This document shows, in pieces, positions 26,258 through 49,848 of a stretch of 64,000 bases of DNA. How positions within the stretch are numbered: position 1 is the stretch's first letter; each line of letters opens with the position of its first letter. Source of the stretch: an uncultured Candidatus Binatia bacterium (GTDB lineage Bacteria > Desulfobacterota > Binatia > UBA9968 > JAJDTQ01); the NCBI GenBank assembly GCA_965213675.1, contig OZ243916.1, positions 2,272,001 through 2,336,000 of the forward strand, read 5' to 3'. The notes beneath the pieces are model-generated. The model searched no databases and was not told where the DNA came from. It saw only the letters and a list, made by a program, of their open reading frames with translations. The position numbers and the translations under genes are program-made.

Positions 26258-26533
26258 GAGTTGACGAACCCTTGAAACTTAGCGCCGCAATGCCGGGCGC
26301 TCTCTGATGGACCGGCGTACATTTCCATATCCTTGTCATCGCTCGTTGGCAAGTCGTATCCGAACGCCACGGCGCCGGGCCGGGCGCGGAGGATGCCGCG
26401 GAGAACCACCGACATGCCAGCCTGCAGGTTGCTCGATTGCGCACGAGCCATACCTGTCGTGTAATGCAACACCCGTGACACTTGACGAGACCGCGCAAGC
26501 AATGTTAATGGCGAATGCATGGACCGACAGCGC

Positions 26534-28588
26534 ATGAGTACGGATATAGTGCGTTCAATATCGGCAATGGTCATCGGTCTCGTGTTGTGGACAGGCCATG
26601 CCGGTGCGATGGACCTGAGTTCGGGAGAGGTCGAGGCCAGTTTCGATACCACGGTCTCCTACGGCGTCACATTTCGGGTTGCCGAGCGCGACGAGCAATT
26701 GAGCGCCGCGGCCAACGACAACGACGGCAACCTCAACTACGAACGCGGCGTCGCAGGCAACGCCACCAAATTCACCAGCGAACTCGATGTCGGCTACCGC
26801 AACTTTGGAATGTTCGTTCGCGCCAGCGGGCTATACGACATCGAGAACGAGGACGGCGACCGGGAACGCACGCCCCTGTCGGCGGACGCCAAGCGACTGA
26901 TCGGGAAAGACATCAACCTGCTTGATGCCTACGTTTCCGGAACGTTTGATATCGGCGACGCTGGTCTGGACGTGCGTATTGGCAAGCACGTGCTCAACTG
27001 GGGCGAGAGCACGTTCATCCAGAATGGCATCAACGCCGTCAATCCGTTCGACGTGAGCAAGCTCCGGGTTCCGGGAGCGGAATTGCGCGAGGCGTTGCTG
27101 GCGGTGCCGCTGGTTTCGGCATCCGTAGCGCCCACGGCCAACCTCTCCATGGAGAGCTTCTACCAGATCGCTTGGGAGAAGACCGAGATCGACCCGGTAG
27201 GCAGCTACTTCTCGGTCACCGACTATGTCGGTCCCGGCGCGCACAAGGCCGTGATCACCCTCCCCGGACTGGACCTTGGTGACATGGGATTGACCGCCGG
27301 CCACAATCCCTTCGCCATCTTTGCCGGCACTTCCGTGGCCGGCGCCTTCAGCCCCGTCACCCAGCCCGATCCCGACTTTCTCATCGCGCCCCGCAAAGCC
27401 GACCGCGAGCCTCGCGATTCCGGTCAATGGGGATTCGCGTTCCACTACCTCGCGGAGAATCTGAACAACACCGAGTTCGGTTTCTATTTCATGAACTACC
27501 ACAGCCGCCTGCCGGTGGTGAACGCGCACACCGGAACCGCGGCGGACGCAGGGAAAGGCTTGGCCGCGGGCGGGGCCATCAGCGCCGCCGGGCCAACGGC
27601 CGTCGGGGAGATCGTCGGTGGCGCCGTCCAGCAGGCCTTGGCTCAAGCTCGCTGTCCTTCGCCGAGTCACAGCCCGGATTGCGCCGCCCTGGCGAGCGCT
27701 GTGCAAGCGGAAACGACAGCCAGGGCGAGCGCCCTCGCCGGAGCCGCCGGCCAGGCCGCCAGCATCGACGCCTACGCAGACAGTGGCCACTACTTCCTCC
27801 AGTATCCAGAGGACATCCAGCTCTACGGCATCAGCTTCAACACGACGCTCGGCGCCATCGGGTGGGCTTTGCAAGGCGAATATGCCTATCGCCGCGACGC
27901 GCCGCTGCAGTTCGCCGAACGCAAGGTGTTCGCCGATGCCCTTGTACCGTTCACCGGACTGCCGGGATGTATCGGACAGGCGGTACAGAGCGGCGTCCCG
28001 CCGGATCAGGCGGGTCCGCAATGCATCGGCCAGAATGCCATGCGCGGCCTGTACGACGCCGACACCACCGGTTTTGTGCGGCGCGACGTGAGCCAGGCCC
28101 AGGCCACCGCCACCAAGGTCTTCGGACCGTTGCTGGGGGCGGATGGGGGCGCGTTCGTCGCGGAAGTGGCGGTGATGCACGTACACGACATGCCGCCCGG
28201 CAACGGCGTGGCAACCGCCGATTTGACCGCGCGCGACATGCCGCTGGAGAGCACCGCCGGCTCGGTCGGGGCAAATCCGATGGGAGACGACTTGAGCGAC
28301 GCCGACGCCACCTCCTGGGGTTACCGGTTGGCCGCTCGGCTGGACTACAACGGCGCCATCGGAGCGGTGAACCTGTTCCCGTATACACGGTTCGGGCATG
28401 ACGTCGGCGGCAACAGCCCTGCGCCCAGCGGTCCGTTCGTGGAAGGCCGGACCGCCCTCACCTTCGGCCTTGCCGCCGACTATCTCAGCCGCTGGCAGTT
28501 CGATCTCGGCTACACCCTCTTTGCCGGCAAAAGGAACACATTGAGGGACCGCGACTTCCTTGCCGCGACCGTGAAATACTCCTTCTAG
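26534..28588 (+). CDS. DUF1302-family outer-membrane beta-barrel protein
   Basis: Signal peptide; NDNDGNLNY, NWGESTFIQNGIN, NYHSRLP, YPEDI, C-terminal DRDF...KYSF. Confidence 0.88.
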   Translation: MSTDIVRSISAMVIGLVLWTGHAGAMDLSSGEVEASFDTTVSYGVTFRVAERDEQLSAAANDNDGNLNYERGVAGNATKFTSELDVGYRNFGMFVRASGLYDIENEDGDRERTPLSADAKRLIGKDINLLDAYVSGTFDIGDAGLDVRIGKHVLNWGESTFIQNGINAVNPFDVSKLRVPGAELREALLAVPLVSASVAPTANLSMESFYQIAWEKTEIDPVGSYFSVTDYVGPGAHKAVITLPGLDLGDMGLTAGHNPFAIFAGTSVAGAFSPVTQPDPDFLIAPRKADREPRDSGQWGFAFHYLAENLNNTEFGFYFMNYHSRLPVVNAHTGTAADAGKGLAAGGAISAAGPTAVGEIVGGAVQQALAQARCPSPSHSPDCAALASAVQAETTARASALAGAAGQAASIDAYADSGHYFLQYPEDIQLYGISFNTTLGAIGWALQGEYAYRRDAPLQFAERKVFADALVPFTGLPGCIGQAVQSGVPPDQAGPQCIGQNAMRGLYDADTTGFVRRDVSQAQATATKVFGPLLGADGGAFVAEVAVMHVHDMPPGNGVATADLTARDMPLESTAGSVGANPMGDDLSDADATSWGYRLAARLDYNGAIGAVNLFPYTRFGHDVGGNSPAPSGPFVEGRTALTFGLAADYLSRWQFDLGYTLFAGKRNTLRDRDFLAATVKYSF

Positions 28589-28771
28589 CGTTGCGCTTCA
28601 TGAATACGTTCAGAAAGAGGCGCAGGAATCCTTGTCGCCGGCGTGGCGCGACGACTTGCGGGAGCGACCGGCGGCCGCCTGTGGCGGGTACCACGCGAGG
28701 AAAAACAACGCAGCCGACGACGAAATGGACAAGCATTGATGTCCTGTCTGGTTCATTCGAGGCGCCATGCA
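28585..28771. mobile_element. MITE-like element, diverged copy
   Basis: Begins at CTAG in the DUF1302 stop; core GCGAGGAAAAACAACGCAGCCGACGACGAAA shared with the 43041 and 48641 copies. Confidence 0.55.
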
Positions 28772-28772
28772 T

Positions 28773-30134
28773 ATGAAAGCATTTACGATTCGATTGGCCA
28801 CCGCGCTTCTCCTGACCTGTGCGCTCGCCGCTCCCGTTTCCGCTGAACTTGCCGCGGACGACGTCGCGCGCCTCGGCAAGGACCTGACCCCCCTCGGGGG
28901 CGAACGAGCCGGCAATGCCGGCGGCACCATCCCCGAGTGGAGCGGGGGCATCACCAAGCCACCGCAAGGCTACCAGCCCGGTGAGCACCATCGTGATCCG
29001 TACGCGGCCGACAAGCCGCTTTTCGTCATCGACGCGTCCAATGTCGACAAGTATCGGGACAGGCTCACCACCGGGCACCAGCGCATGCTGGAGCTCTATC
29101 CGAGCTTCAAGCTGACGGTCTACCCGACCCGGCGCAGCGCCTCGGTACCGCAGCGCATCTACGACGCCACCCGCAGGATCGCCGCGGTCACCCGGCTGGT
29201 GGACGACGGCAACGGCGTGGACGGCGCTGTCATCGGCATTCCGTTTCCCATTCCCAAGAACGGGCAGGAGGTGATCTGGAACCACCTGCTGCGCTACCGC
29301 GGCGAAGCGGTGTCGTGCACGCTGGGACAGGCGGCGGTGACGCGCGGCGGCAGCTACACCCTCGTCAAGTACGCGGTGGACGTGAGCGTGCGCTACTCGT
29401 TGCCGGGCATGACCGTCGAGAAGCTCGGCAACACCATGATCCTTTTCAAACAGCGGGTGACCGCGCCCGCGCGGCTGGCGGGAGACATCGTGCTGGTGCA
29501 CGAGACCATGAACCAGGCGCAGGAGCCGCGCAGCGCCTGGACCTACAACCCGGGTCAACGGCGTGTGCGGCGCGCGCCCAACATCGCTTACGACAATCCC
29601 GGCACCACCTCGGACGGGCTGCGCACCGCAGACCAGTTCGACATGTTCAACGGCGCCATCGACCGCTATGACTGGAAGCTCGTGGGCAAACGCGAGATGA
29701 TCGTGCCCTACAACGCCTACCGGGCGCACAGCGACAGGCTCTCCTTCAGCGACATCATCCGGCCACTACATGCCAACCCGGAGCATATGCGCTACGAGTT
29801 GCACCGGGTATGGATCGTGGACGCCACGCTCAAGGAAGGCGCAAGCCACATCTACAAGCGCCGGACCTTCTACATCGACGAGGACTCGTGGCAGATTCTG
29901 CTGGTGGACATCTACGACAACCGCGACCAGCTCTGGCGCGTGTCCGAGGGGCACGTCATCAACTTCTACGAGAAGCCGCTGATATGGCCCACGCTGGAGA
30001 TCCATCACGACCTGCAAGCCGGACGCTACCTCGCCCTTGGACTCGACAACGAGTTTCCCATGTGCACCTACGACATCACGTTCAAGGAGAGGGACTTCAA
30101 GCCGTCATCCCTGCGTCGCGCGGGAAGGCGGTGA
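28773..30134 (+). CDS. DUF1329-family periplasmic protein (LolA-like fold family)
   Basis: LTPLGGERAGN, PFPIPKNGQE, YNPGQRRVRRAP, RYELHRVW, DEDSWQI. Confidence 0.9.
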   Translation: MKAFTIRLATALLLTCALAAPVSAELAADDVARLGKDLTPLGGERAGNAGGTIPEWSGGITKPPQGYQPGEHHRDPYAADKPLFVIDASNVDKYRDRLTTGHQRMLELYPSFKLTVYPTRRSASVPQRIYDATRRIAAVTRLVDDGNGVDGAVIGIPFPIPKNGQEVIWNHLLRYRGEAVSCTLGQAAVTRGGSYTLVKYAVDVSVRYSLPGMTVEKLGNTMILFKQRVTAPARLAGDIVLVHETMNQAQEPRSAWTYNPGQRRVRRAPNIAYDNPGTTSDGLRTADQFDMFNGAIDRYDWKLVGKREMIVPYNAYRAHSDRLSFSDIIRPLHANPEHMRYELHRVWIVDATLKEGASHIYKRRTFYIDEDSWQILLVDIYDNRDQLWRVSEGHVINFYEKPLIWPTLEIHHDLQAGRYLALGLDNEFPMCTYDITFKERDFKPSSLRRAGRR

Positions 30135-30209
30135 TATGGTTGCCACCCCTGGGTTACCGCTTCCGCAGGAATGACGATGCGGGGGCCCGTGCCCACGCGT
30201 TCCGGGATC

Positions 30210-31214
30210 ATGAAAGAACTCCGCCAGCGTCTGTCCCTGCTTCGCGATCGCATACATCATCTCCGTTGCAGCCCGGGGGCCCTGCTGCCGGCTCTGTTCC
30301 TGTGCCTGACCGCTCACGCCGCCGGTGACACCAAACCAGCCGTCCAGGCGCCCTTGGCCGAGACCACCCTGCTGCTGGACGCGGCCGCCGCCGGTGACCG
30401 CGTCATCGCGGTGGGCCAGCGCGGCCATATCCTCGTCTCCCGCAACGGCGCGGATTGGCAACAGGCCCAGGTGCCCGTGCGCGCGCTGCTCACCGCGGTG
30501 CACATGCACGACGCGGCCACCGGCTGGGCGGTGGGGCACGATGCGGTGATCCTCCGCACCGATGACGCCGGCGACACCTGGCGGCTGGCGCACCGGGCGC
30601 CGGAGGAAGAGCTGCCCCTGCTGGACGTCTGGTTCCGGGACAAGGAGACGGGATTTGCCGTGGGCGCCTACGGCTATTTCCTGGCCACCCGGGACGGCGG
30701 CGCCACATGGGTCGCCCGCGCCATCAGCGCGGACGACTTTCACCTGAACGAGATCGTGCCCGCGGGTCCGCGGCGGCTCTTCATCGCCGCCGAAGCCGGC
30801 GTCGTATACCGGTCCGACGACGATGGCGCCACATGGCGCGAGACGCCCTCGCCCTACACCGGCTCCTGGTACGGCGCGCTGGCGCTCGACGCGGACCAGC
30901 TCCTCCTCTTCGGGCTCCGCGGCCATCTCTTCCGCTCCGAGGACGCGGGCGAGGGCTGGACGCGGGTGACCACTCACACCAATGCGACCCTCACGGACGC
31001 CATCCGGTTGCAATCCGGCGACGTGGTCTTCACCGGGCTCGAAGGCATCATCCTCACCAGCCGGGACAACGGCCGCAGCGTATCCGCCGCGCGTCTGCGC
31101 TCGCGCCAGGGCATCACGTCGGCGCTGGCGCTGCCCGACGGCGACGTACTGTTGACCGGCGAGTTCGGCGTCCAGCGCCTTTCCCGCCTGGACCCGATCC
31201 CCAGTTCCGAATAG
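30210..31214 (+). CDS. YCF48-like/BNR-repeat beta-propeller protein
   Basis: AVGQRGHIL, WAVGHDAVILRTDD.G.TW, repeated SxDxGxxW; start uncertain. Confidence 0.87.
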   Translation: MKELRQRLSLLRDRIHHLRCSPGALLPALFLCLTAHAAGDTKPAVQAPLAETTLLLDAAAAGDRVIAVGQRGHILVSRNGADWQQAQVPVRALLTAVHMHDAATGWAVGHDAVILRTDDAGDTWRLAHRAPEEELPLLDVWFRDKETGFAVGAYGYFLATRDGGATWVARAISADDFHLNEIVPAGPRRLFIAAEAGVVYRSDDDGATWRETPSPYTGSWYGALALDADQLLLFGLRGHLFRSEDAGEGWTRVTTHTNATLTDAIRLQSGDVVFTGLEGIILTSRDNGRSVSAARLRSRQGITSALALPDGDVLLTGEFGVQRLSRLDPIPSSE

Positions 31215-31220
31215 CCATCC

Positions 31221-33581
31221 ATGACCGAAGCGCGCGACAACTCCCCGGCCAACCCCTTCGCCGCGTTCCTCGAGCGCAGCCTGTTCACCCGGCGCGGCCT
31301 CGTCATCGCCGTCTTCGCGCTCGTGACCCTCGTCATGGGCTGGTTCGCCGCGCAATTGCGCGTGGACGCCGGTTTCTTCAAGCTCGTGCCCCTCAAGCAC
31401 GCCTACATGCAGACCTTCCTCAAGCACCAGCCGCAGTTCGGCAGTGCCGACCAGGTGGTGGTCGCCATCACGGCGGAGCAGGGGGACATGTTCACCCCCG
31501 GTTTCTTCGACGTGCTGAAGCAAGTCACCGACGCGATGTTCTTCCTGCCGGGCATCGACCGCACCCAAGTCTACTCTATCCTCACGCCCAACGTGCGCTA
31601 CATCGAGGTGGTGGAGGACGGGGTGATTGCCGGCAATGTGCTGCCCGCGAGCTTCAAGCCCACGAAGGCTGGCCTGGCCCAGGTGCGCGAGAACGCCATC
31701 AAGGCCGGTGTGGTCGGCAGGCTGGTGGCCAACGACTTCACCGGCGCCATCGTCAGCGGCCGCCTGCAGGAGTTCGACCCCAACAGCGGCAAGCGGCTCG
31801 ACTACCTCGACGTCGCGCGTCAATTGGAAGAAATCCGCGCCCGGGCGCAGGCCAGCGCTCCAGTGCGCGTGCATATCATCGGCTTTGCCAAGCTCGTGGG
31901 TGATATCGCCGCGGGCGCCGCGCGGGTCATCGCGTTTTTCGGCATCACCTTCCTGATCACCGCCCTGTTCGTGTATCTCTACACTCGGTCTGTGCGGCTG
32001 ACCATCCCGCCGCTGGTGTGCTCGCTGGTGGCGGTGGTATGGCAGCTCGGCACGGTCACCGCCCTGGGTTTCGGCATCGATCCCATGTCCATCCTGGTGC
32101 CGTTCCTGGTATTCGCGGTGGGGGTCAGCCACGGCGTGCAGATGGTGAGCGCGGTGCGCGCCGAGGTGGTGGCCGGGGCCGCCGGCCTGGACGCGGCGCG
32201 GGCGAGTTTCCGGCGTCTGCTGCTGCCCGGCGCGGTGGCGCTGGCGTCGGACTCCGTGGGTTTCATCAGCATCTCGTTCATCGAGGTGCAGGTCATCCGG
32301 GAGACGGCCATCACCGCCAGCCTCGGCATCGTGGCCATCATTCTTACCAACCTGGCGCTGCTGCCGGTGCTGCTCTCATATTTCCGCATGAGCGAAGCCG
32401 AGCGGCGGGCCGCGGCCGGGCGCGACAGCGTTCTGCGGCCGCTATGGTCCCGCGTGGCGCGGTTGGCGCACCGGGGTCCCGCGGCCGTGACCGTGGGCCT
32501 TGCCGCGGCGCTGGTGACCGTGGGGGCCTTATACGCGGTCCAGGTCCAGGTGGGCGACAGCCACCAGGGCGTGCCCGAACTGCGCGCCGAATCCGTGTAC
32601 AACCGTGACATCGCCACCATCACCGAACGCTTCAAGATCGGCGTGGACGTGCTCACGGTGTTCGCGGAGACGGTGCCGGACGGGTGCATCGACTACGACG
32701 TGCTTGCTACCCTGGACGCGTTCACCTGGCACGTGCGCAACGTGGAGGGAGTCCAATCCGTGATGAGCCTGGCCAGCGTCGCGCGCAACATCAACGCCGG
32801 CTGGAACGAGGGCAACCTCAAGTGGCGCACGCTGCCGCGAAACCGCCACAGCCTGGTGCAGTCGGTTGCGCCGGTACCCACCAGCAGCGGCCTCATCAAC
32901 AACGATTGCAGCGTGCTCCCGGTGCGCATCTACACCGTCGATCACAAGGCGGAGACCATCCAGCGCGTGGTCGACGCCACCCGGGAGTTCCAGCGCCCGA
33001 ACACCGTGGAACGCATTCGCTTTCATCTGGCGGGGGGCAACGTCGGCGTGATGGCCGCCACCAACGAAGAAGTGGATGCTTCCCAGTTCCCGATCCTGGG
33101 CTACGTCTTCGCCGGGATCATCCTGCTGTGCCTGCTCTCGTTCCGCTCCGTGGCCGCCACGGTGTGCATCATCGTGCCGCTGGCCGCGGTATCCATCCTG
33201 GCCTACGGGCTCATGGCGATCCTGGAGATCGGGCTCAAGATCTCGACCCTGCCGGTGGTCGCCCTGGGGGTGGGAATCGGCGTGGACTACGCCATCTACA
33301 TCTATGGCCGGCTGCGCGCCCATCTGGAAGAAGGGCTGGACTTCGCCGACGCCTACGAACGCACCCTCAACATCACCGGCGCCGGCGTGGTGCTCACCGG
33401 ACTCACCCTGGCCGCGGGCGTGGCCACCTGGATCGTCGCCCCGCTCAAGTTCCAGGCCGACATGGGCACGGTGCTGATGTTCATGTTCCTGGTCAACATG
33501 ATCGCCGCCGTGGTGCTGCTGCCGGCCCTCGGCGCGTGGCTCGTGCGCCCGAGGCCGGCGGAACGCGTAAAAGGGACGTAG
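31221..33581 (+). CDS. MMPL/RND-family transporter
   Basis: Two repeated halves; GVSHGVQ, GVGIGVDY, LKFQADMG; last gene of the DUF1302 operon. Confidence 0.92.
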   Translation: MTEARDNSPANPFAAFLERSLFTRRGLVIAVFALVTLVMGWFAAQLRVDAGFFKLVPLKHAYMQTFLKHQPQFGSADQVVVAITAEQGDMFTPGFFDVLKQVTDAMFFLPGIDRTQVYSILTPNVRYIEVVEDGVIAGNVLPASFKPTKAGLAQVRENAIKAGVVGRLVANDFTGAIVSGRLQEFDPNSGKRLDYLDVARQLEEIRARAQASAPVRVHIIGFAKLVGDIAAGAARVIAFFGITFLITALFVYLYTRSVRLTIPPLVCSLVAVVWQLGTVTALGFGIDPMSILVPFLVFAVGVSHGVQMVSAVRAEVVAGAAGLDAARASFRRLLLPGAVALASDSVGFISISFIEVQVIRETAITASLGIVAIILTNLALLPVLLSYFRMSEAERRAAAGRDSVLRPLWSRVARLAHRGPAAVTVGLAAALVTVGALYAVQVQVGDSHQGVPELRAESVYNRDIATITERFKIGVDVLTVFAETVPDGCIDYDVLATLDAFTWHVRNVEGVQSVMSLASVARNINAGWNEGNLKWRTLPRNRHSLVQSVAPVPTSSGLINNDCSVLPVRIYTVDHKAETIQRVVDATREFQRPNTVERIRFHLAGGNVGVMAATNEEVDASQFPILGYVFAGIILLCLLSFRSVAATVCIIVPLAAVSILAYGLMAILEIGLKISTLPVVALGVGIGVDYAIYIYGRLRAHLEEGLDFADAYERTLNITGAGVVLTGLTLAAGVATWIVAPLKFQADMGTVLMFMFLVNMIAAVVLLPALGAWLVRPRPAERVKGT

Positions 33582-33772
33582 GGGCGCGTCTGAAACCCTC
33601 CCATCATTCAACCGCGGCCATTCAAGCCTACGCCGCACCGGCGAAAACCCAACCTCTCATAAAAGAGTGGCGGCCATGGGCATGAAGCCATACAATAGAA
33701 GCCGGATCTCATGGAGGTAGAAGGAAAAGATTTCCGGAAGCCGCAGGAGTCGGCATCGAAAGCGCACAGAAC

Positions 33773-36091
33773 ATGACTTCCAAGTCGAAGCCCGGTTTTT
33801 TCGATCTGATAGTGGATCGATACTTCTGGACGATAGCCGTCACTTTCCTGTTGACCGCCGTGCTCGCCACGGGAGTACAGCACCTCATTACCGTCAATGT
33901 AGGCATCCGAAATCACTTCGATGACAATGACCCGCATTTGATCAACCTCGACGATTTCGAAACGACCTACGCAGTGTCGGACAGCGTCCTCGTCATTGTC
34001 GCCCCGCCGAACGACACCGTTTTCACGCGCAAAGCACTCGTTGCGATTGAGCAACTGACGGACGTGTTGTGGCAAACGCCTTATTCTGTCCGTGTCGATT
34101 CGATAACCAATTACCTGCACACCGAGGGAATCGAGGACACCCTGATTGTCGAGCAACTGGTCGACGACGCGGCTTCGCTGGGCGACGTCAACCTCGCCCG
34201 CATTCGAGACATCGCCCTCACCGCACAGGAAACGGCCGGCCGTTTCGTCTCTCGCGACGGTCGTGTGGCCGGCCTGATCGTGAGCCTGGCCATCCCCGCT
34301 GAACAACGCAAACAGCGCAAAATCGAAGTGGTCGACGGTCTCTACGGTCTGGTCAACAAACAGCGCGCGGCCAACCCCGACATCGAATATCACATCTATG
34401 GTGAACTGTTGTTGAATCGGGCGGTTCGCGACGCGCTGACAGACGATATGTCCTTTTTGGCGCCAATCGCGCTTGCGATGATGGTTCTGGTCGCGATGCT
34501 GTTGTTGCGTTCGGTTTGGAGCGTTTGCGGGATTTTTGCGATGATAATTGCGGTGATGGCATCGAGTTTCGGCCTAACCGGCTGGTTCGGTTTGAAATTC
34601 TATGCGGAAAGCGGCGCCGCGGTATTCGTTCTGATGGCGATTGCCATCGCACACTCCGTCCACCTGATCGAAGGAGTGACCGTTGGAATGCTTCGTGGAA
34701 TGGAACGTAAAGCCGCCGTTGTTCACTCCCTGACAATCAATGCCCATCCGATCTTCCTTACTTCGCTCACCACCATGATCGGTTTTCTGAGCCTGAATTT
34801 TTCGGAAATGCCGCCGTTTCGAGTGATGGGTAATATCGTTGCGTTCGGCGCCATGTGCGCCTTCGTCTACGCGGTCACGCTTTTGCCCGCATTGTTGGCG
34901 ATGATGCCCATCCGGGCACCCGCCGAAACGAGACACGGAACGACACCTTTCAAGCGTTTGGGAGATTTCGTCGTTTCCAAAAGCATTTTCTTGCTATGGA
35001 CTTTCGTCATCCTCGTTCTGGTGAGCGCATATGGCATCTCGCGAATCAGCCTGAATGACAACAACAACGCCAAGCTCCTTAACGAAAGCTACGACTTGCG
35101 CCGATCGGGTGATTTCATCAACGAGCACTTTGCCGGGCTGGATTCCTTTGAGTATTCACTGAATTCCGGGCGCGCGGGGGGAATCACCGACATTGAGTAC
35201 CTGCGTCGGGTGGATTCGTTCGCCAACTGGCTTCGCGAACAGCCTGAAGTTTCTCACGTCACCTCGATTGCCGATATCATGAAGCGGATTAATCAAAATC
35301 TTCATAATGACGCAAAAGGCACCTATGCCCTCCCGGCAAACTCCGACCTTGCGGCGCAATACCTGCTTTTATACCAGTTCTCCCTACCGGTCGGCCGCGA
35401 CATAGACAATCTCATCAACTTTGAGCGGTCGGCGACCCGGATGACCGTCGTGATCGGGGGAATGTCGGTCAAAAAGCAAATCGAGCTGGACAATCGCGCT
35501 TCTGCCTGGCTGGGACACAATGCTCCGCAAATGCGGACCGGAGCGACCGGCGTCGCCATTGTGGGCGCTTACTCGGTGATGAGAAACATCGTGAACATGT
35601 TACTCGGCACCTTCATCGCGATCTCGACCGTGTCGCTGCTGTTGATCCTTGCATTCAAAAGCCTTCGCTTGGGGCTTCTAAGCCTGATACCCAATTTCGT
35701 GCCGGCAATCATATCCTTGGGGGCATGGGGTTACGCTGTGGGAACCGTGAATATTGCGGCGTCAATCGTTACCGCGATAGCGTTTGCCATCGTTGTGGAC
35801 GATACCATCCATCTCCTGTCGAAATACCTGACTTCACGCGCAGAGGGCAAATCACCTTCCGAAGCCATCCCGCCGACTTTCGAGCTCGTGGGACAACCGC
35901 TGCTGAGCACCACGTTGATTTTTGCGGTGGCATTTTTCGTCTTTGGCGCATCGGGGCTAGTGACCAATCAGACGCTCGGTTTGCTGGTCGGAATGACGGT
36001 CATCATTGCGCTCGTTGCGGACCTCTTTTTGTTACCGCCGCTTCTGCTGGCCCTCGACAGGACGAAACACCGGCAAACGCTCGACGACTAG
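33773..36091 (+). CDS. Second MMPL/RND-family transporter (AT-richer codon usage)
   Basis: Duplicated TM architecture; LTSLTTMIGFLSL, SLIPNFVP, AIVVDDTIH. Confidence 0.9.
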   Translation: MTSKSKPGFFDLIVDRYFWTIAVTFLLTAVLATGVQHLITVNVGIRNHFDDNDPHLINLDDFETTYAVSDSVLVIVAPPNDTVFTRKALVAIEQLTDVLWQTPYSVRVDSITNYLHTEGIEDTLIVEQLVDDAASLGDVNLARIRDIALTAQETAGRFVSRDGRVAGLIVSLAIPAEQRKQRKIEVVDGLYGLVNKQRAANPDIEYHIYGELLLNRAVRDALTDDMSFLAPIALAMMVLVAMLLLRSVWSVCGIFAMIIAVMASSFGLTGWFGLKFYAESGAAVFVLMAIAIAHSVHLIEGVTVGMLRGMERKAAVVHSLTINAHPIFLTSLTTMIGFLSLNFSEMPPFRVMGNIVAFGAMCAFVYAVTLLPALLAMMPIRAPAETRHGTTPFKRLGDFVVSKSIFLLWTFVILVLVSAYGISRISLNDNNNAKLLNESYDLRRSGDFINEHFAGLDSFEYSLNSGRAGGITDIEYLRRVDSFANWLREQPEVSHVTSIADIMKRINQNLHNDAKGTYALPANSDLAAQYLLLYQFSLPVGRDIDNLINFERSATRMTVVIGGMSVKKQIELDNRASAWLGHNAPQMRTGATGVAIVGAYSVMRNIVNMLLGTFIAISTVSLLLILAFKSLRLGLLSLIPNFVPAIISLGAWGYAVGTVNIAASIVTAIAFAIVVDDTIHLLSKYLTSRAEGKSPSEAIPPTFELVGQPLLSTTLIFAVAFFVFGASGLVTNQTLGLLVGMTVIIALVADLFLLPPLLLALDRTKHRQTLDD

Positions 36092-36259
36092 CTTTCGGGA
36101 CGTCTCGTGATGGCCGAAACCATGAGGTCCTGGACGCGCCGATGACCCCGGTTCCGCCGGCGTCTCGCGAGCAAACTTCCGCCCGTCCGCGTCCACGTTC
36201 GCGCCATGCCGTCATTCTCGACAGCGTCCGTATCGCCGGTCACGAGCGCAGGAGCACCT

Positions 36260-38290
36260 TCAGGCCGAAATGTCGCGCAACTGGCTTGCGATGCGCAGCC
36301 GAAGTTTCTTCGTAACCGACAATGCCGGGAATGGGTTGATTTTCAGTTTATAGTCTTTGGGCGGCGGCGCAAAGTCGAAATGGTGCGCTATAACCAACAC
36401 GGTAACCGTCGCCTGCAAATGCATCCATGCCCATCCCGCGCACGAGTGGGTATCCAAGCCGTTCGGAGCGTATCCAGGACCTTGATGCTCATTGCGCGGC
36501 GGCAGGTAACGGTCTATATCGAAGTCGTAGGGGTCTGCGAAGCAATCACTCATGTAGTGGGCCGCGGTTTGCACAATGTACAACCGTTCCCGGAGCGGCA
36601 GTGAATAATTTTCCACCACGCAAGAATTTGCGACATCGCGAAGATGTGTGCTGATAATCGGATACATTCGCAAGCATTCCATGAGAAAGCGCCTGGTAAC
36701 GTCATATTTGTCCGGCGTAAACGCTTCTTTATTCGGATCGCCGCCATCGAACAGCGCGTTTGCCTCTTCACGAATTCTCGCCGCAATATCCGGGTGCCTG
36801 GCCAACTCATAAAGTGCGAAACCCAACATGTCCCCTAGATAAATACTTTGAAACACGGGCGTTACCGCCATCATGAACATCAGGTTTTGCTCCGGGATAA
36901 ACTGCGGATCGCTGGTGTGCAAAGAAATCAGCTCGTCCGCCAGCTCCCGGGCAGCGCCTGCACGGTGAATGGGAATGTGGTTCTGTTCGATGCGCCGCAG
37001 GAGTTTCTCGTAAAGCTGGAAGCGATACTTCATGCCGGGAGTGCGCGTCAGGAATTTCGGGAGAAAATCCGCAACGTAGCAAAGGATTGCTTTTTCATTC
37101 CATTTGACCAGGTCTTCAAATACATCTTGCGAATTCGTACTAATAAGAACCTGAGACATTTGAAAATTGGTCATCGACCGGGTATCGCGCTGTACTTCCA
37201 GTGTCGAGCCGGCCTGCCACTTTTGAGTTATCATGAATTGGCGGCTCAGTCGGAACATGTCATCCAGCCGCTCGTGGAAACTGGCCTTCGAGTAAATTTT
37301 CCCCATCAGCTTGCGCAATCGAAAATGATCAGCTCCGTCCGTCGACGGCAGTAAATTGTTTGCGCCGCAAACCGTCTCCATCTTGCGAAAAAAATTGCCG
37401 GAAGTCAAAAACCTTCGGGAATTTCGACGCATCCAATGATTGATGTCAGGTCCTGCCAAAAATGTTCGCGGTCTTTGAAACGGCGGACAGATTTGAAAGA
37501 CGGGACCATATCGGGCGGCCAGATTCCCGAACAGGGCTGGCAGGTTGCCGTCCCACAAATGCCGATTTGCGAACAAGCTCCTTAGGGGAATCTTCGGAAT
37601 TGGTTTTGTGAGGGGTGAGTGTTGCAATACAGGCGTAATGGCGACCTGCTTGACAGCAGTGGAGATGACCCGGTTGATCAGTTCCGTTTTACAAACCTGG
37701 TCAATTCGCTTTTTCTCGTCCTCGCCCAGCTCGAAAATGAATTTGATGATATCGCACGCGCTCAAAAGACCGATTATCAGGGAATCCCTCGGGTCTGGAA
37801 TGATATCCGTGAAAATTACCTTCGCGATTCGCGATTTGATGTACTTTCCAACGGTCTCGCTTTGAGGATATCGTTCCAATTCCGCATGCCAGGCGCAGTG
37901 GTTCGTTGTATAAAACTCACCATCATGGCGCGTCAGAATTTCGGAGTTGATCAACTGCTTCAATGTAGCATCGATGATGTCTTCCGAATGAACTGCAAGC
38001 CGCTCAATCCAGTATCGCGGTTCTTCCAGATTGGGATGAGATGCGAACTCTTCCAGACATAAATCCAGTGCCGGGTCGCCTGTTTTGGTCGAGTCCAGGA
38101 GAAAGAGCGATTCTTCGTCGGTATCAATGCGTGATTTCAGGGAGAGATCGGCCAGAACTGCGCCGATGGTGGCGCAGTTCAACGTCCAGCCCTCCACTTG
38201 GTGGAAATAACCGTTCTGCTCGTTGAGAATCGTCAGGATGAATTCTTGCGGGATATTCAACGATTGCTTCGTTATCATGTTACACGCCAT
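36260..38290 (-). CDS. GPP34(GOLPH3)-domain plus cytochrome P450 fusion
   Basis: N-terminal LNIPQEFILTIL..GAVLADLSL..RI..TGDPALD (GPP34-like); P450 motifs ECLRMYP, FDIDRY, GLDTHSCAG; start 38290 or 38278. Confidence 0.85.
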   Translation of the reverse strand: MACNMITKQSLNIPQEFILTILNEQNGYFHQVEGWTLNCATIGAVLADLSLKSRIDTDEESLFLLDSTKTGDPALDLCLEEFASHPNLEEPRYWIERLAVHSEDIIDATLKQLINSEILTRHDGEFYTTNHCAWHAELERYPQSETVGKYIKSRIAKVIFTDIIPDPRDSLIIGLLSACDIIKFIFELGEDEKKRIDQVCKTELINRVISTAVKQVAITPVLQHSPLTKPIPKIPLRSLFANRHLWDGNLPALFGNLAARYGPVFQICPPFQRPRTFLAGPDINHWMRRNSRRFLTSGNFFRKMETVCGANNLLPSTDGADHFRLRKLMGKIYSKASFHERLDDMFRLSRQFMITQKWQAGSTLEVQRDTRSMTNFQMSQVLISTNSQDVFEDLVKWNEKAILCYVADFLPKFLTRTPGMKYRFQLYEKLLRRIEQNHIPIHRAGAARELADELISLHTSDPQFIPEQNLMFMMAVTPVFQSIYLGDMLGFALYELARHPDIAARIREEANALFDGGDPNKEAFTPDKYDVTRRFLMECLRMYPIISTHLRDVANSCVVENYSLPLRERLYIVQTAAHYMSDCFADPYDFDIDRYLPPRNEHQGPGYAPNGLDTHSCAGWAWMHLQATVTVLVIAHHFDFAPPPKDYKLKINPFPALSVTKKLRLRIASQLRDISA

Positions 38291-38358
38291 TCCTCGTGAT
38301 TTGATTCTTTCTCGTGATGCCGATGCCTGCGGCTTCCGGTCCCCTTTTTTCCATCCCT

Positions 38359-41300
38359 CTACGAGATCTTCTTTGCCGTTCCGGTTCCGCCGTCCGGCGT
38401 CATGTCCACAGCCGCCACTCTTCCAGCCATGACGCGTTGACTTCTCGCCGGTAATATCATGTTCATTCGTTGGTTCCGGCGACGCTGCTCGTAGAGGGCA
38501 AGCGCGTGCAGGGGGAAATACTGGCGGTAGAGCACGTAATCCAGGAGGGCCGTTCGAAAAAAAACGCCGGCCATGTCCTGCTTGGGCCAAGTCCCGTCTG
38601 CTTCCTGCGTATCAAGCAGGAAGCCGGCACCCCGGGAAATCGCGGCCCAGTCTGTTGTGCCCGCCTCGAGGAGCGCTATCAGCGCCCACGCGGTCTGTAT
38701 GACCTGGCTTTCCTGATGCGGGACGTAGCGACCGGTCAGGCAGCCGCTGTGGTGTTCGCCCCATCCCCCGTCTGGCTGCTGGCGCTCCAGCAGCCAGCGG
38801 CAAGACGCGCGCAGCGCCGGATCGCTTGGACCGGCCCGGTCCGAAACAAGGCCCCTGATGCCGAAAAGGGTGCCGTAGATGTACTGTACCCCCCATACGC
38901 CGCGCCAACTGCCGTCAGCCATCTGGTGCCGTCGCAACCACAAGACGCCCCGGGCGATGGAGTCGGCAACCACCGACCTGTCGCCAATTTCGGGAAATCG
39001 ATCCCGGCAGACAGCCAGCGCCGCGATACAAGACGCGGTACACTCGACAAAAGAACGCTCGGTCATCGATTCGCCGAACATCTCTGCAGGATTCAAACGC
39101 TCCAGATCAATTGCCGAGCGCCTGGCCTCATAACTGCCGAAGCCCCCGTCGGGGTTCTGGCTTCGCAACATAAAGCCAATCGCTTCGCTGAGGACGGACG
39201 GGTCCGTGTCGTCTCCGTGGGCGGCGACGAGTCCGAGCACCGCCTCCGCCGTGCAGTCACTCACCGGCCAGCCATGCCACCCGCCGGCGAAGCACCAGCC
39301 GCCTTTGGGGTCAGCGCGGTAGGCTTCACGAAACCGCTCAAAGCTGGTCTTGATCTGTTCGCCGAGCAGAAAATCGGCGCCGCGCCGGAGCGCATCCCGA
39401 ACACGGTCCGTCTCAGGCATGGTAGCCAGAGCCTGCAGCGCGAACCCGGTATCCCACGAAGCGCTTCTTGCTCCGCTGACCCGCAAGCCGTCGTCTTCGT
39501 CTTCCCATATCCAGGAACCCATTTTCGATAGCGCCCGTCGGCAATCGGTATCGTCCGGATCGTGCAGCCACAGCGCCAGAATGTTGAGAATGCCGCTGAC
39601 CGGAGAGATGCTCGTATGGCCGGTGGTCTGCAGTTCCCATCTGATCTGCCCGAGAATTGTATCCATGCACCGTGTGCGCAGGTGTTTGCTGTGGAACCGC
39701 TCGACCAGCCGTGCAAATCCATATCCGAGCCTGAGCCAGACGGACGGCCTTGCAAAAAGATCGGCGTCCCGAAGCCGGTTCCTGGCGGCGAGAAAGTCGG
39801 CCCTGGCAAAACCTTGCGGATAAAGCTCTTCCCGCAACGCGGCGATAACTGGTGTGACGGGCGCCTGGAACCGGCGGGCATAAATCGACGCCATCGCCAT
39901 ATAGATGAGCCGTGTATGGCAGTACCAGTTGGAAGGATGCAGCGGTATCTTCCGCGGCAGGCTCCACAATTCCGGCAGAACAGCGTTCACGCCGTTCCAA
40001 TCATAAAGATTAAGGAGCGCCAGCCATAATTTTCCCCAGCTCGGAATGCCGAGAATCCCCTCGGCCTGAATGAACCGCCGGGCCGGCGCGATCAGGGGGT
40101 CATCCGGCAATACACCGAGCAGCCGCGCCGCGACATAAACGAGGGCGGTGACGAACAGATGGGGCGACGAATGCTCGTGCAGGCCCCATGAACCGTCCTG
40201 GAGACGAGTCCTCTCAAACGAGCGCAGCACCCGGCGCCGCTTTCCCGGATCGAGCGGCTGGCCGATGATGTGGTGGAGCAGTACGTATTGCGCCGTGAGC
40301 ATGGGACACCAGACCATCTCGCCTTCCCAGTCGCCGTCCTCTCTCTGCAGTTGCACGAGGCATTGGGCGGCGCTGTCCAGCGCCGGGCCGGCATCGGGCG
40401 AATCGACCGCTCCCGCGCGGGCGGGCCGCTCCGATTCGGTTTTCGAAGGGATGGAATAGGGGAATGCCCGTCGTAGGTGCTCTCGCGTATTCGCGCTTTC
40501 CTCCCTTCCTTCCCTGGTCGCCGCCCTCAACTGGCGGATGCCGAGCAGCAACCACCAAAGGCGAGCAGCCAACGCGCGAAAGTTCACCAACATCCGACGC
40601 CATGAAAGCCTGCGGATGGAGAAGGTTATCTCCCGGCTCATTGCCCGCGCGACAGTTTCGCAAAAGGAGAAAACCGTCATTGACATGGACAAGTCTTCGC
40701 AGGCAAGTATCCGCATGGTCCGGTCCCGATACCCCGAATTCGCTCGCCAGCCTTGGTAAACGGCCTTTCTGAGCATAGCCGATTCGGTGCGGTAATCGCC
40801 CAACACCTCATAAAGCCCCATGGCAAGGAACTCGGGAACACGGGTCGCCTGGAACCGCTCTGCGGTGAATTGCTGGAAGTCCTCGCTTTCGGAGAGCGCC
40901 AGCGCATCGCCGAAGCCGAGAGTCATGCCGACTGCCGTCATGGGATGATAGTGTCCGGCGGCATCGCCGATAAGCACCCGGCGCGGGTTCCCGTACGTGA
41001 CACGCGGTCTCAATTGGTTGGGGGCGGCATGGAATCGCCTGACGTCCAGCGCTTCGACGAAGGCCGGCCCGAGATATCCCGGAAGCAGCTTGCCATAGGA
41101 TTCAGACAAGAAACTTATCCAGTCCTTGGAATGCCAGCAGTCCAATGGGACATCCACGTTGACCCGGACGGAGCCGTTCGCAAGTCCGTAAATGAAAATT
41201 GGACCCGGCCCGCCCAGAACCACATGTCCGTATCCTTCAAACGGCAGGTCGGCGTCGTGTAACGTCACCCCGAGCATCCGCGAACAGAGCATCGGGTCCA

Positions 41301-41799
41301 TGGAATACCCCAAGGATCTGCGCACGATCGAAGCGCGGCCGTCGGCGCCGATAATTCGGTCGACATTTATGGCGCAGTCCGAGCGGTCTTTCGAGAAGGT
41401 GATCCGTTCGTCTTCAACGACATTGACCCGCGCGTGGGAAATGAAATCGACATTGGCCTCGTTCTCTATGACCTCGCGGAGGCTTGAAACGAGCAGCGCG
41501 TGGTCGCATACCAGACCCCGTGAACCGTCTGGATAAGGAAGCAGGATCGGGTCGGAGTCGTCGTCGGGCAGCACCACGAAGCCGACGCCCGACTTGCTGC
41601 CGGAAAGCGTGTCGACATCAATCCCGATGTCACGCAACAAATTCACTGCCGGCGGATGCAACCATTCGCCTGCAAGGCGTTTAGACGCTTTCGGATTCGC
41701 TTCGAGCAGGGCCACCTTAACGCCCTTGCGCGCAAGGACAATTGCGCACACGCTTCCCACCGGTCCCGCGCCGACAATGGCGGTATCATACTTCGGCAC
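38359..41799 (-). CDS. Squalene epoxidase-oxidosqualene cyclase fusion
   Basis: GTG 41799 after GAGGAGG. N-half: GAGPVG, RLAGEWLHP, ADG, GDAAGHYHPMTAVGMT. C-half: QxxDGxW repeats, WYCHTR, GWPVSDCTAE, GVWG.QYIYGT, GVFF..ALLDY..YRQYFP. Confidence 0.92.
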   Translation of the reverse strand: MPKYDTAIVGAGPVGSVCAIVLARKGVKVALLEANPKASKRLAGEWLHPPAVNLLRDIGIDVDTLSGSKSGVGFVVLPDDDSDPILLPYPDGSRGLVCDHALLVSSLREVIENEANVDFISHARVNVVEDERITFSKDRSDCAINVDRIIGADGRASIVRRSLGYSMDPMLCSRMLGVTLHDADLPFEGYGHVVLGGPGPIFIYGLANGSVRVNVDVPLDCWHSKDWISFLSESYGKLLPGYLGPAFVEALDVRRFHAAPNQLRPRVTYGNPRRVLIGDAAGHYHPMTAVGMTLGFGDALALSESEDFQQFTAERFQATRVPEFLAMGLYEVLGDYRTESAMLRKAVYQGWRANSGYRDRTMRILACEDLSMSMTVFSFCETVARAMSREITFSIRRLSWRRMLVNFRALAARLWWLLLGIRQLRAATREGREESANTREHLRRAFPYSIPSKTESERPARAGAVDSPDAGPALDSAAQCLVQLQREDGDWEGEMVWCPMLTAQYVLLHHIIGQPLDPGKRRRVLRSFERTRLQDGSWGLHEHSSPHLFVTALVYVAARLLGVLPDDPLIAPARRFIQAEGILGIPSWGKLWLALLNLYDWNGVNAVLPELWSLPRKIPLHPSNWYCHTRLIYMAMASIYARRFQAPVTPVIAALREELYPQGFARADFLAARNRLRDADLFARPSVWLRLGYGFARLVERFHSKHLRTRCMDTILGQIRWELQTTGHTSISPVSGILNILALWLHDPDDTDCRRALSKMGSWIWEDEDDGLRVSGARSASWDTGFALQALATMPETDRVRDALRRGADFLLGEQIKTSFERFREAYRADPKGGWCFAGGWHGWPVSDCTAEAVLGLVAAHGDDTDPSVLSEAIGFMLRSQNPDGGFGSYEARRSAIDLERLNPAEMFGESMTERSFVECTASCIAALAVCRDRFPEIGDRSVVADSIARGVLWLRRHQMADGSWRGVWGVQYIYGTLFGIRGLVSDRAGPSDPALRASCRWLLERQQPDGGWGEHHSGCLTGRYVPHQESQVIQTAWALIALLEAGTTDWAAISRGAGFLLDTQEADGTWPKQDMAGVFFRTALLDYVLYRQYFPLHALALYEQRRRNQRMNMILPARSQRVMAGRVAAVDMTPDGGTGTAKKIS

Positions 41800-42103
41800 C
41801 GAGTCAGCCCTCCTCAAAGGGCGCTGGGTATAGCGCGGCGGCGGTTGTGGAGGGCAGGTCTTCCAGGTTCGCCACTGGGGTAGGCATGACGAGCGCCTCC
41901 TGCACCACGTTCGTGGCGAGGCCGGTGAAGGTCAGAGTCGGGTCACTTCCCGCACCGTGTTTGCGAGCGAATCATCTTGTCTTTCAAGGGACGAGTTGTA
42001 TTTCTTTGTTTTCAGCCAATTGCGGGCGGCAGGACAAACCTTACACGGCCAAGTTTCAAACCCGCCAGTGTCCAATCGCGCCGAGACGTGTCTCCAACCC
42101 CCC

Positions 42104-42742
42104 CTACGCCGCGAACGACGCCTGTGTTTCCTTCTCGAAGGCCAGTAGCTTCTGGACGCTGGGGCGGGTCTGCATGCGCGCGAAATGCGCGCGCACGTTG
42201 GGATAGGGCTCCAGGTCGATGTCGAACTGGGTGCTGCGGCGTACGCACCAGAAGAAATGCGCGTCCGGCGCGGTGAAGTGATCGAAGAAGTACTCGCGCC
42301 CGTCCAGCATGGACTCGGCGATTCCGTTGGTCTCGGCCAGGAACTCGGCGGCGATGCGGGACACGCTCTCCACGCTGTCCGCCGCGTCGCACACCTTGGC
42401 CGGCGAGTTGATGCGGCTCAGATAAGGGTGGATGCCCGATGCGCACCACGACATGATCGAGATCGCCCTGACCTCATCCCAAGGATCCGACGGCAGCAGC
42501 CTGGCCTCCGGGAAGCGCCGCGCGATCCACACCTGAATGGCCACGTTCTCCGTCAGGGTTTTCCCGTCCACCATCAGAAGCGGCACCTTGTGCTTGGGAT
42601 TGAGCTTCATGTACTCCTCGGTGCGGTTCTGCCCCGCCCGGAAGTTCAACGCCTTGACTTCGAAGTCCGCCCCCGCCTCGGTCAACGTGATGTAGGGCGC
42701 CATCGCGCAGGTGATGGGCGCGTAATACAACTGGATGCTCAT
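42104..42742 (-). CDS. Glutathione S-transferase family protein
   Basis: LYYAP, LNPKHKVP, LTENVAI, FTAPD, RPSVQ; GGAGGT RBS. Confidence 0.92.
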   Translation of the reverse strand: MSIQLYYAPITCAMAPYITLTEAGADFEVKALNFRAGQNRTEEYMKLNPKHKVPLLMVDGKTLTENVAIQVWIARRFPEARLLPSDPWDEVRAISIMSWCASGIHPYLSRINSPAKVCDAADSVESVSRIAAEFLAETNGIAESMLDGREYFFDHFTAPDAHFFWCVRRSTQFDIDLEPYPNVRAHFARMQTRPSVQKLLAFEKETQASFAA

Positions 42743-48640: not shown

Positions 48641-48806
48641 CTGGTGTCGTGTCCCGTAAATTCCTGCGACAAGTTGCGCAGGATTTTTTTGTTGCCGGCA
48701 AGGCGCGATGACGAGCAGTGGCGGGCACCCCGCGAGGAAGGTCCACGCAGCCGACGGCGAAAAAGATCCGCAGATTATGACACGAATTAACCAGACACCA
48801 CACTAG
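48641..48806. mobile_element. MITE-like element copy between cofD and cofC
   Basis: CTGGTGTCGTGTCCCGTAAAT ... GACACCACACTAG; core GTTGCCGGCAAGGCGCGATGACGAG identical to the 43041 copy. Confidence 0.75.
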
Positions 48807-49785: not shown

Positions 49786-49848
49786 TCGGCGGCGGCTTCG
49801 AAGCCGGCCGTGCCCGGCGCCACCCCCGCAAGGGACGGCGGGTATCCG

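Follow-up and report, generated by a model that had tools for sequence, protein, structure and literature searches.

What would a bacterium do with a cytochrome P450 that carries a relative of the eukaryotic Golgi adaptor GOLPH3 at its N terminus and is encoded beside a sterol cyclase? The question is raised by a minus-strand gene at 36260..38278 of a 64,000-nucleotide (nt) stretch of DNA from an uncultured Candidatus Binatia bacterium (GenBank assembly GCA_965213675.1, contig OZ243916.1, positions 2,272,001 to 2,336,000); this whole stretch is referred to below as the window. The gene encodes 672 amino acids (aa) and a stop codon, a GPP34 domain being followed by a P450 domain, and its assignment draws on the open reading frame (ORF) list, Pfam matches, an identical database copy, homologues, and the ratio of nonsynonymous to synonymous substitution (dN/dS). 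It lies among sterol genes, both in the window and in relatives, and its P450 part is akin to the sterol P450 CYP51. We favor, at a probability of about 0.55, the reading that the fusion is a cytoplasmic, membrane-peripheral heme-thiolate enzyme of a module for sterol synthesis, modification, and export in host-associated bacteria.

Two lines of published work bear on this gene and, by the literature searches made, have so far remained unconnected. The first (Microbiome 2025;13:4; PMC11706023) gives the GPP34+P450 architecture the name GPP34_L; 656 of its 663 long forms are GPP34+P450, and rarer long forms fuse GPP34 to a Rieske domain or to an ABC ATPase. According to its main text, GPP34_L is found only in sponge symbionts, which belong to many phyla, is expressed in Aplysina aerophoba, and is among the most prevalent genes separating sponge symbionts from free-living relatives. 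The second (Brown et al. 2023, PMC10070321) describes sterol gene clusters of sponge symbionts with biochemically tested sterol methyltransferases (SMTs); its main text and readable supplements mention ERG11 and no other P450, cytochrome, or GPP34. Our searches found no literature linking GPP34 or GPP34-P450 with sterols, PDF and preprint supplements lying outside their coverage. The architecture itself is thus already published (PMC11706023), and what appears to be new here is its sterol link.

An intact two-domain gene

The minus-strand frame is open from 36260 to 38590, its extension running into the end of the upstream gene. The true start is most likely the ATG at 38278, because the identical database protein has 672 aa and homologue alignments begin at the Met encoded there; an alternative in-frame ATG at 38290, four codons upstream, is directly abutted by a Shine-Dalgarno-like GAGGA. 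Both domains called in the earlier sequence-only reading were recovered by Pfam, whose coordinates for the fusion refer to the 676-aa reading from ATG 38290. GPP34 (PF05719) spans aa 13-213 (E=7.4e-23; 82.1 bits against a cut-off of 29.1; profile positions 1-198 of 201), which places the GOLPH3/Vps74-like domain at 37652..38254 on the minus strand. The p450 match (PF00067) is confined to aa 489-661 (profile positions 282-455 of 462; E=3.8e-22). This partial match reflects divergence rather than truncation, since both the family profile and the AlphaFold fold span a complete P450 domain (36263..37573, minus strand). The model, built on the family alignment, contains the full set of P450 helices (mean predicted local confidence [pLDDT] 82.6; predicted template-modeling score [pTM] 0.74), so that the structure prediction proposed at the outset yields a whole P450 fold.

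A word-index search returned 601 relatives at E<=0.001, from which the 120 best protein clusters (~47-100% identity) were used. The GPP34 and p450 Pfam pair is present in 118 of these, the two exceptions being short proteins of 530 and 482 aa. The two-domain architecture is therefore far beyond chance, and with N-terminal GPP34 and C-terminal P450 in one protein it is the same as that of GPP34_L, from which it differs neither in domain order and size nor in the kinds of metagenome-assembled genomes (MAGs) that carry it. Neither a signal peptide nor a transmembrane segment is present in the fusion protein; its highest 19-residue Kyte-Doolittle mean, 1.85, falls in a core helix (166-185). NCBIfam gave only weak matches far under their cut-offs, such as pentalenene oxygenase at 69.5 bits against 800, and a search of the ESM Atlas with the fusion returned generic P450 clusters only.

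The fusion gene lies among sterol genes

Directly upstream of the fusion gene, on the same strand and 80 nt away, lies a gene for a 1152-aa fused squalene epoxidase and oxidosqualene cyclase (SE-OSC; 38359..41817, minus strand). It matches Pfam SE, FAD_binding_3, SQHop_cyclase_N, and SQHop_cyclase_C, with the epoxidase at aa 10-357 and the cyclase at aa 481-1110, and NCBIfam TIGR03463 at E=1.4e-220. A terminator scan detected no terminator-like site in the 80-nt gap, and the two genes are probably cotranscribed; over 33500-42300, the promoter and terminator scan gave counts equal to shuffle expectation. On the other side of the fusion gene is a 772-aa RND/MMPL (HAE3) transporter with a sterol-sensing domain (MMPL-SSD; 33773..36091, plus strand; Pfam MMPL 1.2e-30, Sterol-sensing 3.2e-6). 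NCBIfam assigns it to HAE3 and HpnN-like families, and among solved structures it comes closest to MmpL4/5 and, weakly, to HpnN. An MMPL-family RND gene adjoining sterol genes resembles the arrangement of bstA, which encodes the candidate sterol exporter of Methylococcus capsulatus, itself an MMPL-family RND protein encoded beside sdmAB (PMC10942540); the window transporter is only distantly HpnN-like, at 91.9 bits against a cut-off of 751.85.

To see how general this setting is, we consider the 77 loci, with up to 10 kb of each flank, that were obtained from the best 80 of 545 stretches encoding relatives in a one-genome-per-species scan. Nearly all are from MAGs, of Dehalococcoidia/Chloroflexota, Alpha- and Gammaproteobacteria (Candidatus Poriferihabitaceae among them), Nitrospirales, Latescibacterota, Binatia, Opitutia, Longimicrobiales, and Rhodothermales. 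Their 1226 neighboring proteins were called by a simple greedy ORF procedure, clustered by blastp, and named by Pfam and NCBIfam on one representative each. At least one sterol-linked neighbor occurs within 10 kb in 69 of the 77 loci, and an SMT, SE-OSC, ERG4/24, CYP51, or MMPL-SSD gene in 66. The MMPL/RND cluster is found in 55 loci (the sterol-sensing domain being confirmed for the copies of the window and of locus L001), SMTs with a Sterol_MT_C domain in 35, and SE-OSC in 16 by cluster or 17 by tblastn. An SdmA-like Rieske protein (NCBIfam 4beta-methylsterol monooxygenase, E=9.6e-118) accompanies the fusion gene in 8 loci, ERG4/ERG24 in 7, and a protein like 3beta-hydroxysteroid dehydrogenase in 5; other recurrent neighbors are a FAD amine-oxidase-like protein (20), an ABC ATPase with an ABC_tran domain (11), a LolA-like protein alongside the MMPL-SSD gene (10), and AcrB (7). 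The association is close: 45 loci have MMPL-SSD, and 32 have SMT, no more than two ORFs away from the fusion gene.

Some of these loci correspond to clusters already in print. Brown et al. give the gene orders SMT-x-SMT-(SMO-OSC)-ERG11-ERG24-sdmA and SMT...SMT-sdmB-sdmA-ERG24-ERG11-(SMO-OSC) (PMC10070321), which match loci L076/L022 and L039/L044, and in our loci the fusion gene comes next. The shared content is SMT, fused SMO-OSC, ERG11, ERG24, and sdmA/B; the GPP34-P450 gene is unlisted both in what those authors present and in PMC10942540. ERG1 and ERG7 match a single gene id in three of the clusters of Brown et al., which implies a fused SE-OSC; the fusion is thus implicit, without discussion, in Supplementary Data 1 of that paper.

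A FastTree phylogeny of 75 full-length proteins, from which four proteins shorter than 600 aa were omitted, splits the fusion family into two clades. The proteobacterial clade (24 rows, including the window protein; QSIY motif in the I-helix) corresponds to 23 loci, with MMPL-SSD in 19, SE-OSC in 14, and SMT in none. The multiphylum clade, or clade B (51 rows; ASVY motif), corresponds to 54 loci, the four short unplaced proteins included, with MMPL-SSD in 36, SMT in 35, a KshA-like Rieske protein in 29, FAD oxidase in 20, and SE-OSC in 3. Dehalococcoidia loci (L024, L029, L052, L059, L073, and others) share a fixed block of GPP34-P450, SMT, MMPL, KshA-like Rieske, MFS, and LppX/LprG-like lipoprotein genes, with no cyclase gene within 10 kb; from its gene content, this block looks like a module handling sterols that the cell itself does not make.

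This distribution also bears on a catabolic explanation, in which the locus would take up and degrade or detoxify host steroids and the P450 would hydroxylate the side chain or a ring in partnership with the Rieske oxygenase. The commonest Rieske neighbor (29 of 77 loci; Pfam KshA_C) is indeed closest, among solved structures, to 3-ketosteroid 9alpha-hydroxylase KshA (E=2.9e-23); genes for MFS proteins and for LppX/LprG-like lipoproteins accompany the fusion gene, each type in 7 loci; the scarcity of cyclase genes in clade B would be expected; and steroid catabolism genes have been reported from sponge metagenomes (PMC5790920). However, the most frequent enzymatic neighbor is the sterol C-24 methyltransferase, which performs anabolic tailoring, and SE-OSC, CYP51, ERG24, and SdmA-like genes are biosynthetic. 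Typical families of ring cleavage or beta-oxidation had no match among the neighbor clusters present in at least 4 loci, and the RND/MMPL partner is similar to exporters (HpnN and BstA; PMC10942540). We therefore consider catabolism unlikely.

The GPP34 domain and the published effector proposal

A profile of 21 N-terminal domains matched human GOLPH3 (3kn1, E=7.3e-6; 9qpq, 1.3e-5) and yeast Vps74 (9.2e-5), while a single-sequence search of the PDB with the window's N-domain reached only E=0.2. The phosphatidylinositol 4-phosphate (PI4P) pocket of human GOLPH3 is formed by W81, R90, R171, and R174, and pairwise mutation of these residues abolishes binding (PMC2806290). In a HMMER alignment to full-length 9qpq_A, which is remote (E ~1e-5), W81 corresponds to the invariant W31 of the fusion, R90 to I38, R171 to E99, and R174 to I102, and GOLPH3 residues 161-170, the ten before R171, have no counterpart. 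Because one of the four pocket residues is kept, a GOLPH3-type PI4P site is unsupported, and such a pocket in the fusion appears unlikely, the remote alignment being an indication rather than proof. The projecting beta-hairpin of the GOLPH3 family is needed for oligomerization and membrane binding. In the model of the fusion, strands are predicted at 115-118 and 122-125, with H118, G120, F122, and T124 invariant, and may correspond to the beta3/beta4 hairpin of GOLPH3. The domain thus shares with GOLPH3/Vps74 (PDB 3kn1, 2zii; PMC2806290) the family PF05719, a predicted helical core with a possible beta-hairpin, and the pocket Trp; it differs in the replacement of three of the four pocket residues, the missing 10-residue segment, its bacterial cytoplasmic setting, and its fusion to an enzyme. 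A complex prediction for the GPP34 domain with the MMPL-SSD transporter scored 0.00 against a mark of 0.32 and weighs neither way.

A published proposal makes these proteins effectors: GPP34 proteins, GPP34-P450 included, would be secreted, attach to host PI4P on the phagosome, and keep the phagosome from maturing, which would allow the bacterium to persist in the sponge (PMC11706023). The homology of the GPP34 domain to GOLPH3 and Vps74 and the invariance of the pocket Trp agree with this proposal, as do the reported restriction of the long form to sponge symbionts, its expression in A. aerophoba (PMC11706023), and the origin of its relatives from MAGs of many phyla, including Candidatus Poriferihabitaceae and Candidatus Poriferihabitans. 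Against it stand the replaced arginines and the missing segment of the pocket, as far as the remote alignment goes, and the lack of a signal peptide in the fusion, secretion being a proposal in that paper. The paper contains no analysis of P450 motifs, confines its flank analysis to the Actinobacteriota short form, and in its main text, PDF supplements being outside this statement, does not use the words sterol, squalene, MMPL, methyltransferase, or "signal peptide"; the effector role leaves unexplained both the fused heme enzyme and the sterol-linked neighbors. The rarer GPP34 fusions, with Rieske or ABC ATPase partners (PMC11706023), involve the two kinds of protein also encoded as neighbors here (29 and 11 loci), as would be expected of a docking module more than of an effector. 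We judge the effector explanation quite unlikely for the fusion.

The P450 part is related to CYP51 and is probably not the 14alpha-demethylase

The 19-member family profile, over positions 246-645, aligned with residues 28-427 of M. capsulatus CYP51 at E=1.7e-24, and Foldseek returned the same enzyme (6mcw) as the best PDB match of the model (target template-modeling score 0.81, 17% identity), with P450 BM3 next. For the least derived fusion tested, a protein with canonical motifs (P0142), the match to CYP51 was 4e-41 and that to the next family 1.4e-28. On these comparisons the P450 part is closest to bacterial CYP51, which, together with the SE-OSC gene next door, gives substance to a hint at sterol P450s in the sequence-only reading.

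True CYP51 genes occur in the same clusters. Reading both strands of related loci revealed P450s of 490-517 aa (Pfam E ~1e-58 to 1e-61) where the published clusters place ERG11, and these are canonical CYP51; the copy in L012 matches M. capsulatus CYP51 (6mcw) at E=4.8e-107 and shows FAGQHTS and PVFGRGVAYD, neither of which is found in the fusion family. By tblastn, canonical CYP51, intact or cut by the end of the locus, is present in 9 loci (L004, L012, L015, L022, L044, L050, L061, L065, and L076). Since canonical CYP51 shares the cluster in these 9 loci, the fusion is an additional P450, does not appear to replace the sterol P450, and is most likely not the 14-demethylase. In two proteobacterial loci only C-terminal fragments of CYP51 remain beside the cyclase gene (L010:9052-9381 and L011:15548-16029), with the GPP34-P450 gene intact, an indication that some proteobacterial carriers have lost 14-demethylation.

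That the fusion is nevertheless these bacteria's sterol 14alpha-demethylase, a divergent CYP51 with a docking domain, is very unlikely. CYP51 is the best PDB match by both sequence profile and fold, no other P450 and no CYP51 remnant was found in the 64-kb window (tblastn, E up to 10), and L010 and L011 retain no more than the fragments just described. Yet the 9 loci hold canonical CYP51 next to ERG24 and the cyclase besides the fusion; identity between fusion and CYP51 is only 17-19%, and the profile match is far from the high-scoring full-length similarity of the L012 enzyme; the CYP51 I-helix AG(Q/H)HT(S) and the B'-helix signature ...P.FG.GV.YD are missing from the fusion family; and a three-step oxidative demethylation requires efficient oxygen activation, the motif for which has been lost. 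The CYP51-ferredoxin fusion of M. capsulatus (6mcw, 6mi0, 7snm) is similar in being the best match in sequence and fold and in the company of cyclase, ERG24, and SdmA. It differs in its partner, a C-terminal ferredoxin rather than an N-terminal GPP34 domain, in retaining the AGxHT and B' signatures, and in that a true CYP51 co-occurs with our fusion.

A lost proton-relay pair beside conserved heme determinants

The fusion has the fold, Cys-ligand loop, ExxR, and PERF-type motif of the P450 superfamily. All of the motifs quoted in the sequence-only reading were found on the minus strand, and their key residues are invariant in 19 sequences from several phyla: E534 and R537 of the K-helix ExxR (ECLR, 36668..36679); F586, D587, R590, and Y591 of the PERF-like FDIDRY (quoted stretch FDIDRYLPP, 36497..36523); and H611, C613, and G615 of the heme-thiolate loop YAPNGLDTHSCAG (Cys613; 36434..36472). 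H318 and R322 of the C-helix are likewise invariant. In place of the (A/G)Gx(D/E)T oxygen-activation pair of the I-helix stands QSIYLGD (36830..36850), with S478, Y480, G482, and D483 invariant in the same sequences; in the model it sits mid-helix in a 32-residue I-helix (463-494). Of the 120 nearest clusters, 116 carry the pattern x-x-(S/A)-x-Y-x-G-D; the other four are two truncated proteins and two that the pattern failed to catch.

The origin of this motif can be followed among more distant proteins. A HMMER search with the P450 part alone against 1.84 billion representatives gave 5448 matches at E<=0.001 and 151 at E<=1e-30, including fusions of 650-690 aa down to 24% identity and stand-alone P450s of 440-490 aa. 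In a joint alignment of 25 proteins and one true CYP51, the distant fusions and stand-alone relatives have canonical AG(L/I)DT, aligned at QSIYLGD, and PFGxGxHxCLG, so that the absence of the acid-alcohol pair noted from the sequence alone holds. Three intermediates (AGIHT, AGHYTGS, and AAIYLGS) stand between these and the (Q/A)S(I/V)YLGD of the window's subfamily. By this alignment, the acid-alcohol pair was lost inside the fusion family, after which the replacement S-x-Y-x-G-D became fixed; loss followed by a frozen replacement is a signature of altered function and not of lost function. One Dehalococcoidia genome carries tandem GPP34-P450 genes (L053:8407-10524 and L053:11315-13342) whose I-helices read IASVYLGD and LASMYLGD. 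Among 22 of the P450 relatives run through Pfam, further architectures were seen in P0192, P0203, P0210, P0266, and P0184: four with two C-terminal cyclic-nucleotide (cNMP)-binding domains (711-739 aa) and one GPP34-GPP34-P450 protein (872 aa).

The heme loop was described in the sequence-only reading as degenerate. It is unusual, as claimed, but not as a family trait. Position Cys-7 of 119 loops is mostly Y (98), otherwise F (18) or N (3), and position Cys-4 is either G (72) or D (47); because Y/F and G prevail at these positions, the family consensus YAPYGLGTH.C.G is near-canonical. Asn at Cys-7 is confined to the window protein, its two relatives of at least 88% identity, and L001, and the change from Gly to Asp at Cys-4 marks the proteobacterial clade; the peculiarities of the loop are thus lineage specific. 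Residues 607-613, in this region, have low confidence in the AlphaFold model. We rejected low pLDDT as a sign of degeneracy, since a clade-B control with a canonical loop also falls below 50, at 612-618.

The gene is intact and under purifying selection. The Nei-Gojobori dN/dS between the window and L001, a MAG of another species whose fusion is 90% identical in aa sequence and carries the same heme loop, is 0.14 (dS 0.35); it is 0.16 against L002, 0.12-0.16 across L002, L021, and L027, and at most 0.24 for either domain. The suggestion that the enzyme may be decaying is refuted by these low ratios and by the family-wide I-helix motif, which is fixed in the subfamily. A decaying gene with a nonfunctional heme site is barely credible: the Asn in place of an aromatic residue at Cys-7, the Asp in place of Gly at Cys-4, a Pfam match to only the C-terminal 40% of the P450 profile, and an uncertain model around the heme loop could be read in its favor, but the frame is open across 672 codons, the remaining heme determinants are all intact, the equal uncertainty of the control makes low confidence undiagnostic, and an identical loop shared with L001 at this dS and dN/dS means that the variant has persisted under constraint.

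What the fusion may do

Because the loss of the proton-relay pair is fixed while heme ligation is kept, ordinary monooxygenase turnover is doubtful, and the motifs make nonstandard chemistry, already raised in the sequence-only reading, plausible. P450s that lack the acid-alcohol pair and work outside the usual O2/NAD(P)H cycle include the CYP74 allene oxide synthase, CYP8A1, CYP5A1, and the CYP152 peroxygenases. The fusion resembles them in the loss of the I-helix pair and the retention of ExxR and the Cys ligand; it differs in having no CYP74-type heme-loop insertion and in its S-x-Y-x-G-D motif, and the likeness is one of motifs rather than of demonstrated sequence kinship.

In the reading that we prefer, that of a membrane-peripheral enzyme of a sterol module, the P450 domain would bind a sterol, which in the genome of the window would be the product of the cyclase and, where the 10-kb flanks on either side hold no cyclase gene, would probably come from the host. 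The step carried out would be one other than 14-demethylation, with oxygen either activated in an unusual manner, assisted by the substrate or by Tyr, or not needed, as in a peroxide-driven or rearranging reaction. GPP34 would act as an adaptor that docks the enzyme either on a membrane partner or on the cytoplasmic side of the membrane, and the docking site would be the place where sterols are made and handed over to the exporter. For sterol binding, the reaction, and the adaptor role alike, we infer function from sequence, context, and modeled structure.

Several points weigh against this reading. Substrate and reaction are guesses. A cyclase gene is present in only 17 of 77 flanks and the long form occurs in most symbiont genomes of many phyla (PMC11706023), so that most carriers would need host sterols. 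The retained pocket Trp and the restriction to symbionts would also suit a host-directed role. In the window the MMPL-SSD gene is convergent with the fusion gene, and the two do not form one operon. Eight of the 77 loci have no sterol-linked neighbor: two are contigs of 1-5 kb, three have an adjoining AcrB pump, two have LolA-like genes, and L019 has only an ABC ATPase. Neighbor families were named from a single representative per blastp cluster after crude ORF calling, and the context comes from the 77 closest loci of the 545, the distant fusions with canonical motifs lying outside this sample. A ferredoxin-type gene near the fusion was not found in a crude motif scan (ORFs of 50-140 aa with CxxCxxCxxxCP, in 78 sequences; 2Fe-2S types unscored), a result that fits either reading.

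A bolder version, which we offer tentatively and regard as doubtful, is that GPP34-P450 is a missing sterol enzyme of the symbionts: derived from CYP51, it would have abandoned classical oxygen activation and would perform, at the membrane, a redox-neutral or peroxide-driven conversion of host sterols or of the sterol that the cell's cyclase produces, with GPP34 serving as a prokaryotic adaptor that tethers P450, Rieske, and ABC ATPase proteins to sterol export machinery.

Other genes in the window

Directly upstream of the MMPL-SSD gene, at 26519..33581 on the plus strand, Pfam identifies genes for DUF1302, DUF1329 (LolA-like), and BNR/Ycf48-like proteins and for a second MMPL transporter. 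This four-gene set may constitute an envelope-spanning route of lipid export; its tie to the fusion is uncertain. Elsewhere, a LolA-like gene and one for a 420-aa protein without Pfam matches follow the MMPL-SSD gene. The G+C content is 0.52-0.55 across 34-38 kb, where the transporter and the fusion gene lie, against ~0.65 in the flanks; this dip is consistent with horizontal acquisition of the pair. In the best-supported reading, the fusion works on sterols as part of a transferable module. The remaining genes are housekeeping genes (thrS, infC, pheT, thiC, hisG, glmS, clpB, and F420 genes). The F420/FO genes, encoding CofD and two radical-SAM CofH/CofG-like proteins, lie at 48787-52624 on the minus strand and appear unrelated to the fusion.

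Implications

Placement in sterol clusters gives the GPP34-P450 family a concrete, testable function and makes it a candidate for a new step in bacterial sterol pathways. The series from AGxDT to SxYxGD provides a natural record of how a P450 loses its proton-relay pair. The sterol clusters of sponge symbionts bear on the interpretation of sterane biomarkers (PMC10070321), and, if the bolder version above is true, symbionts could influence the unusual sponge sterol inventories that serve as biomarkers. In that case, too, the "symbiosis gene" most widespread among sponge bacteria would have to do with sterols and not with phagosomes. A further question is whether bacterial relatives of the eukaryotic Golgi adaptor GOLPH3 act at membranes that handle sterols.

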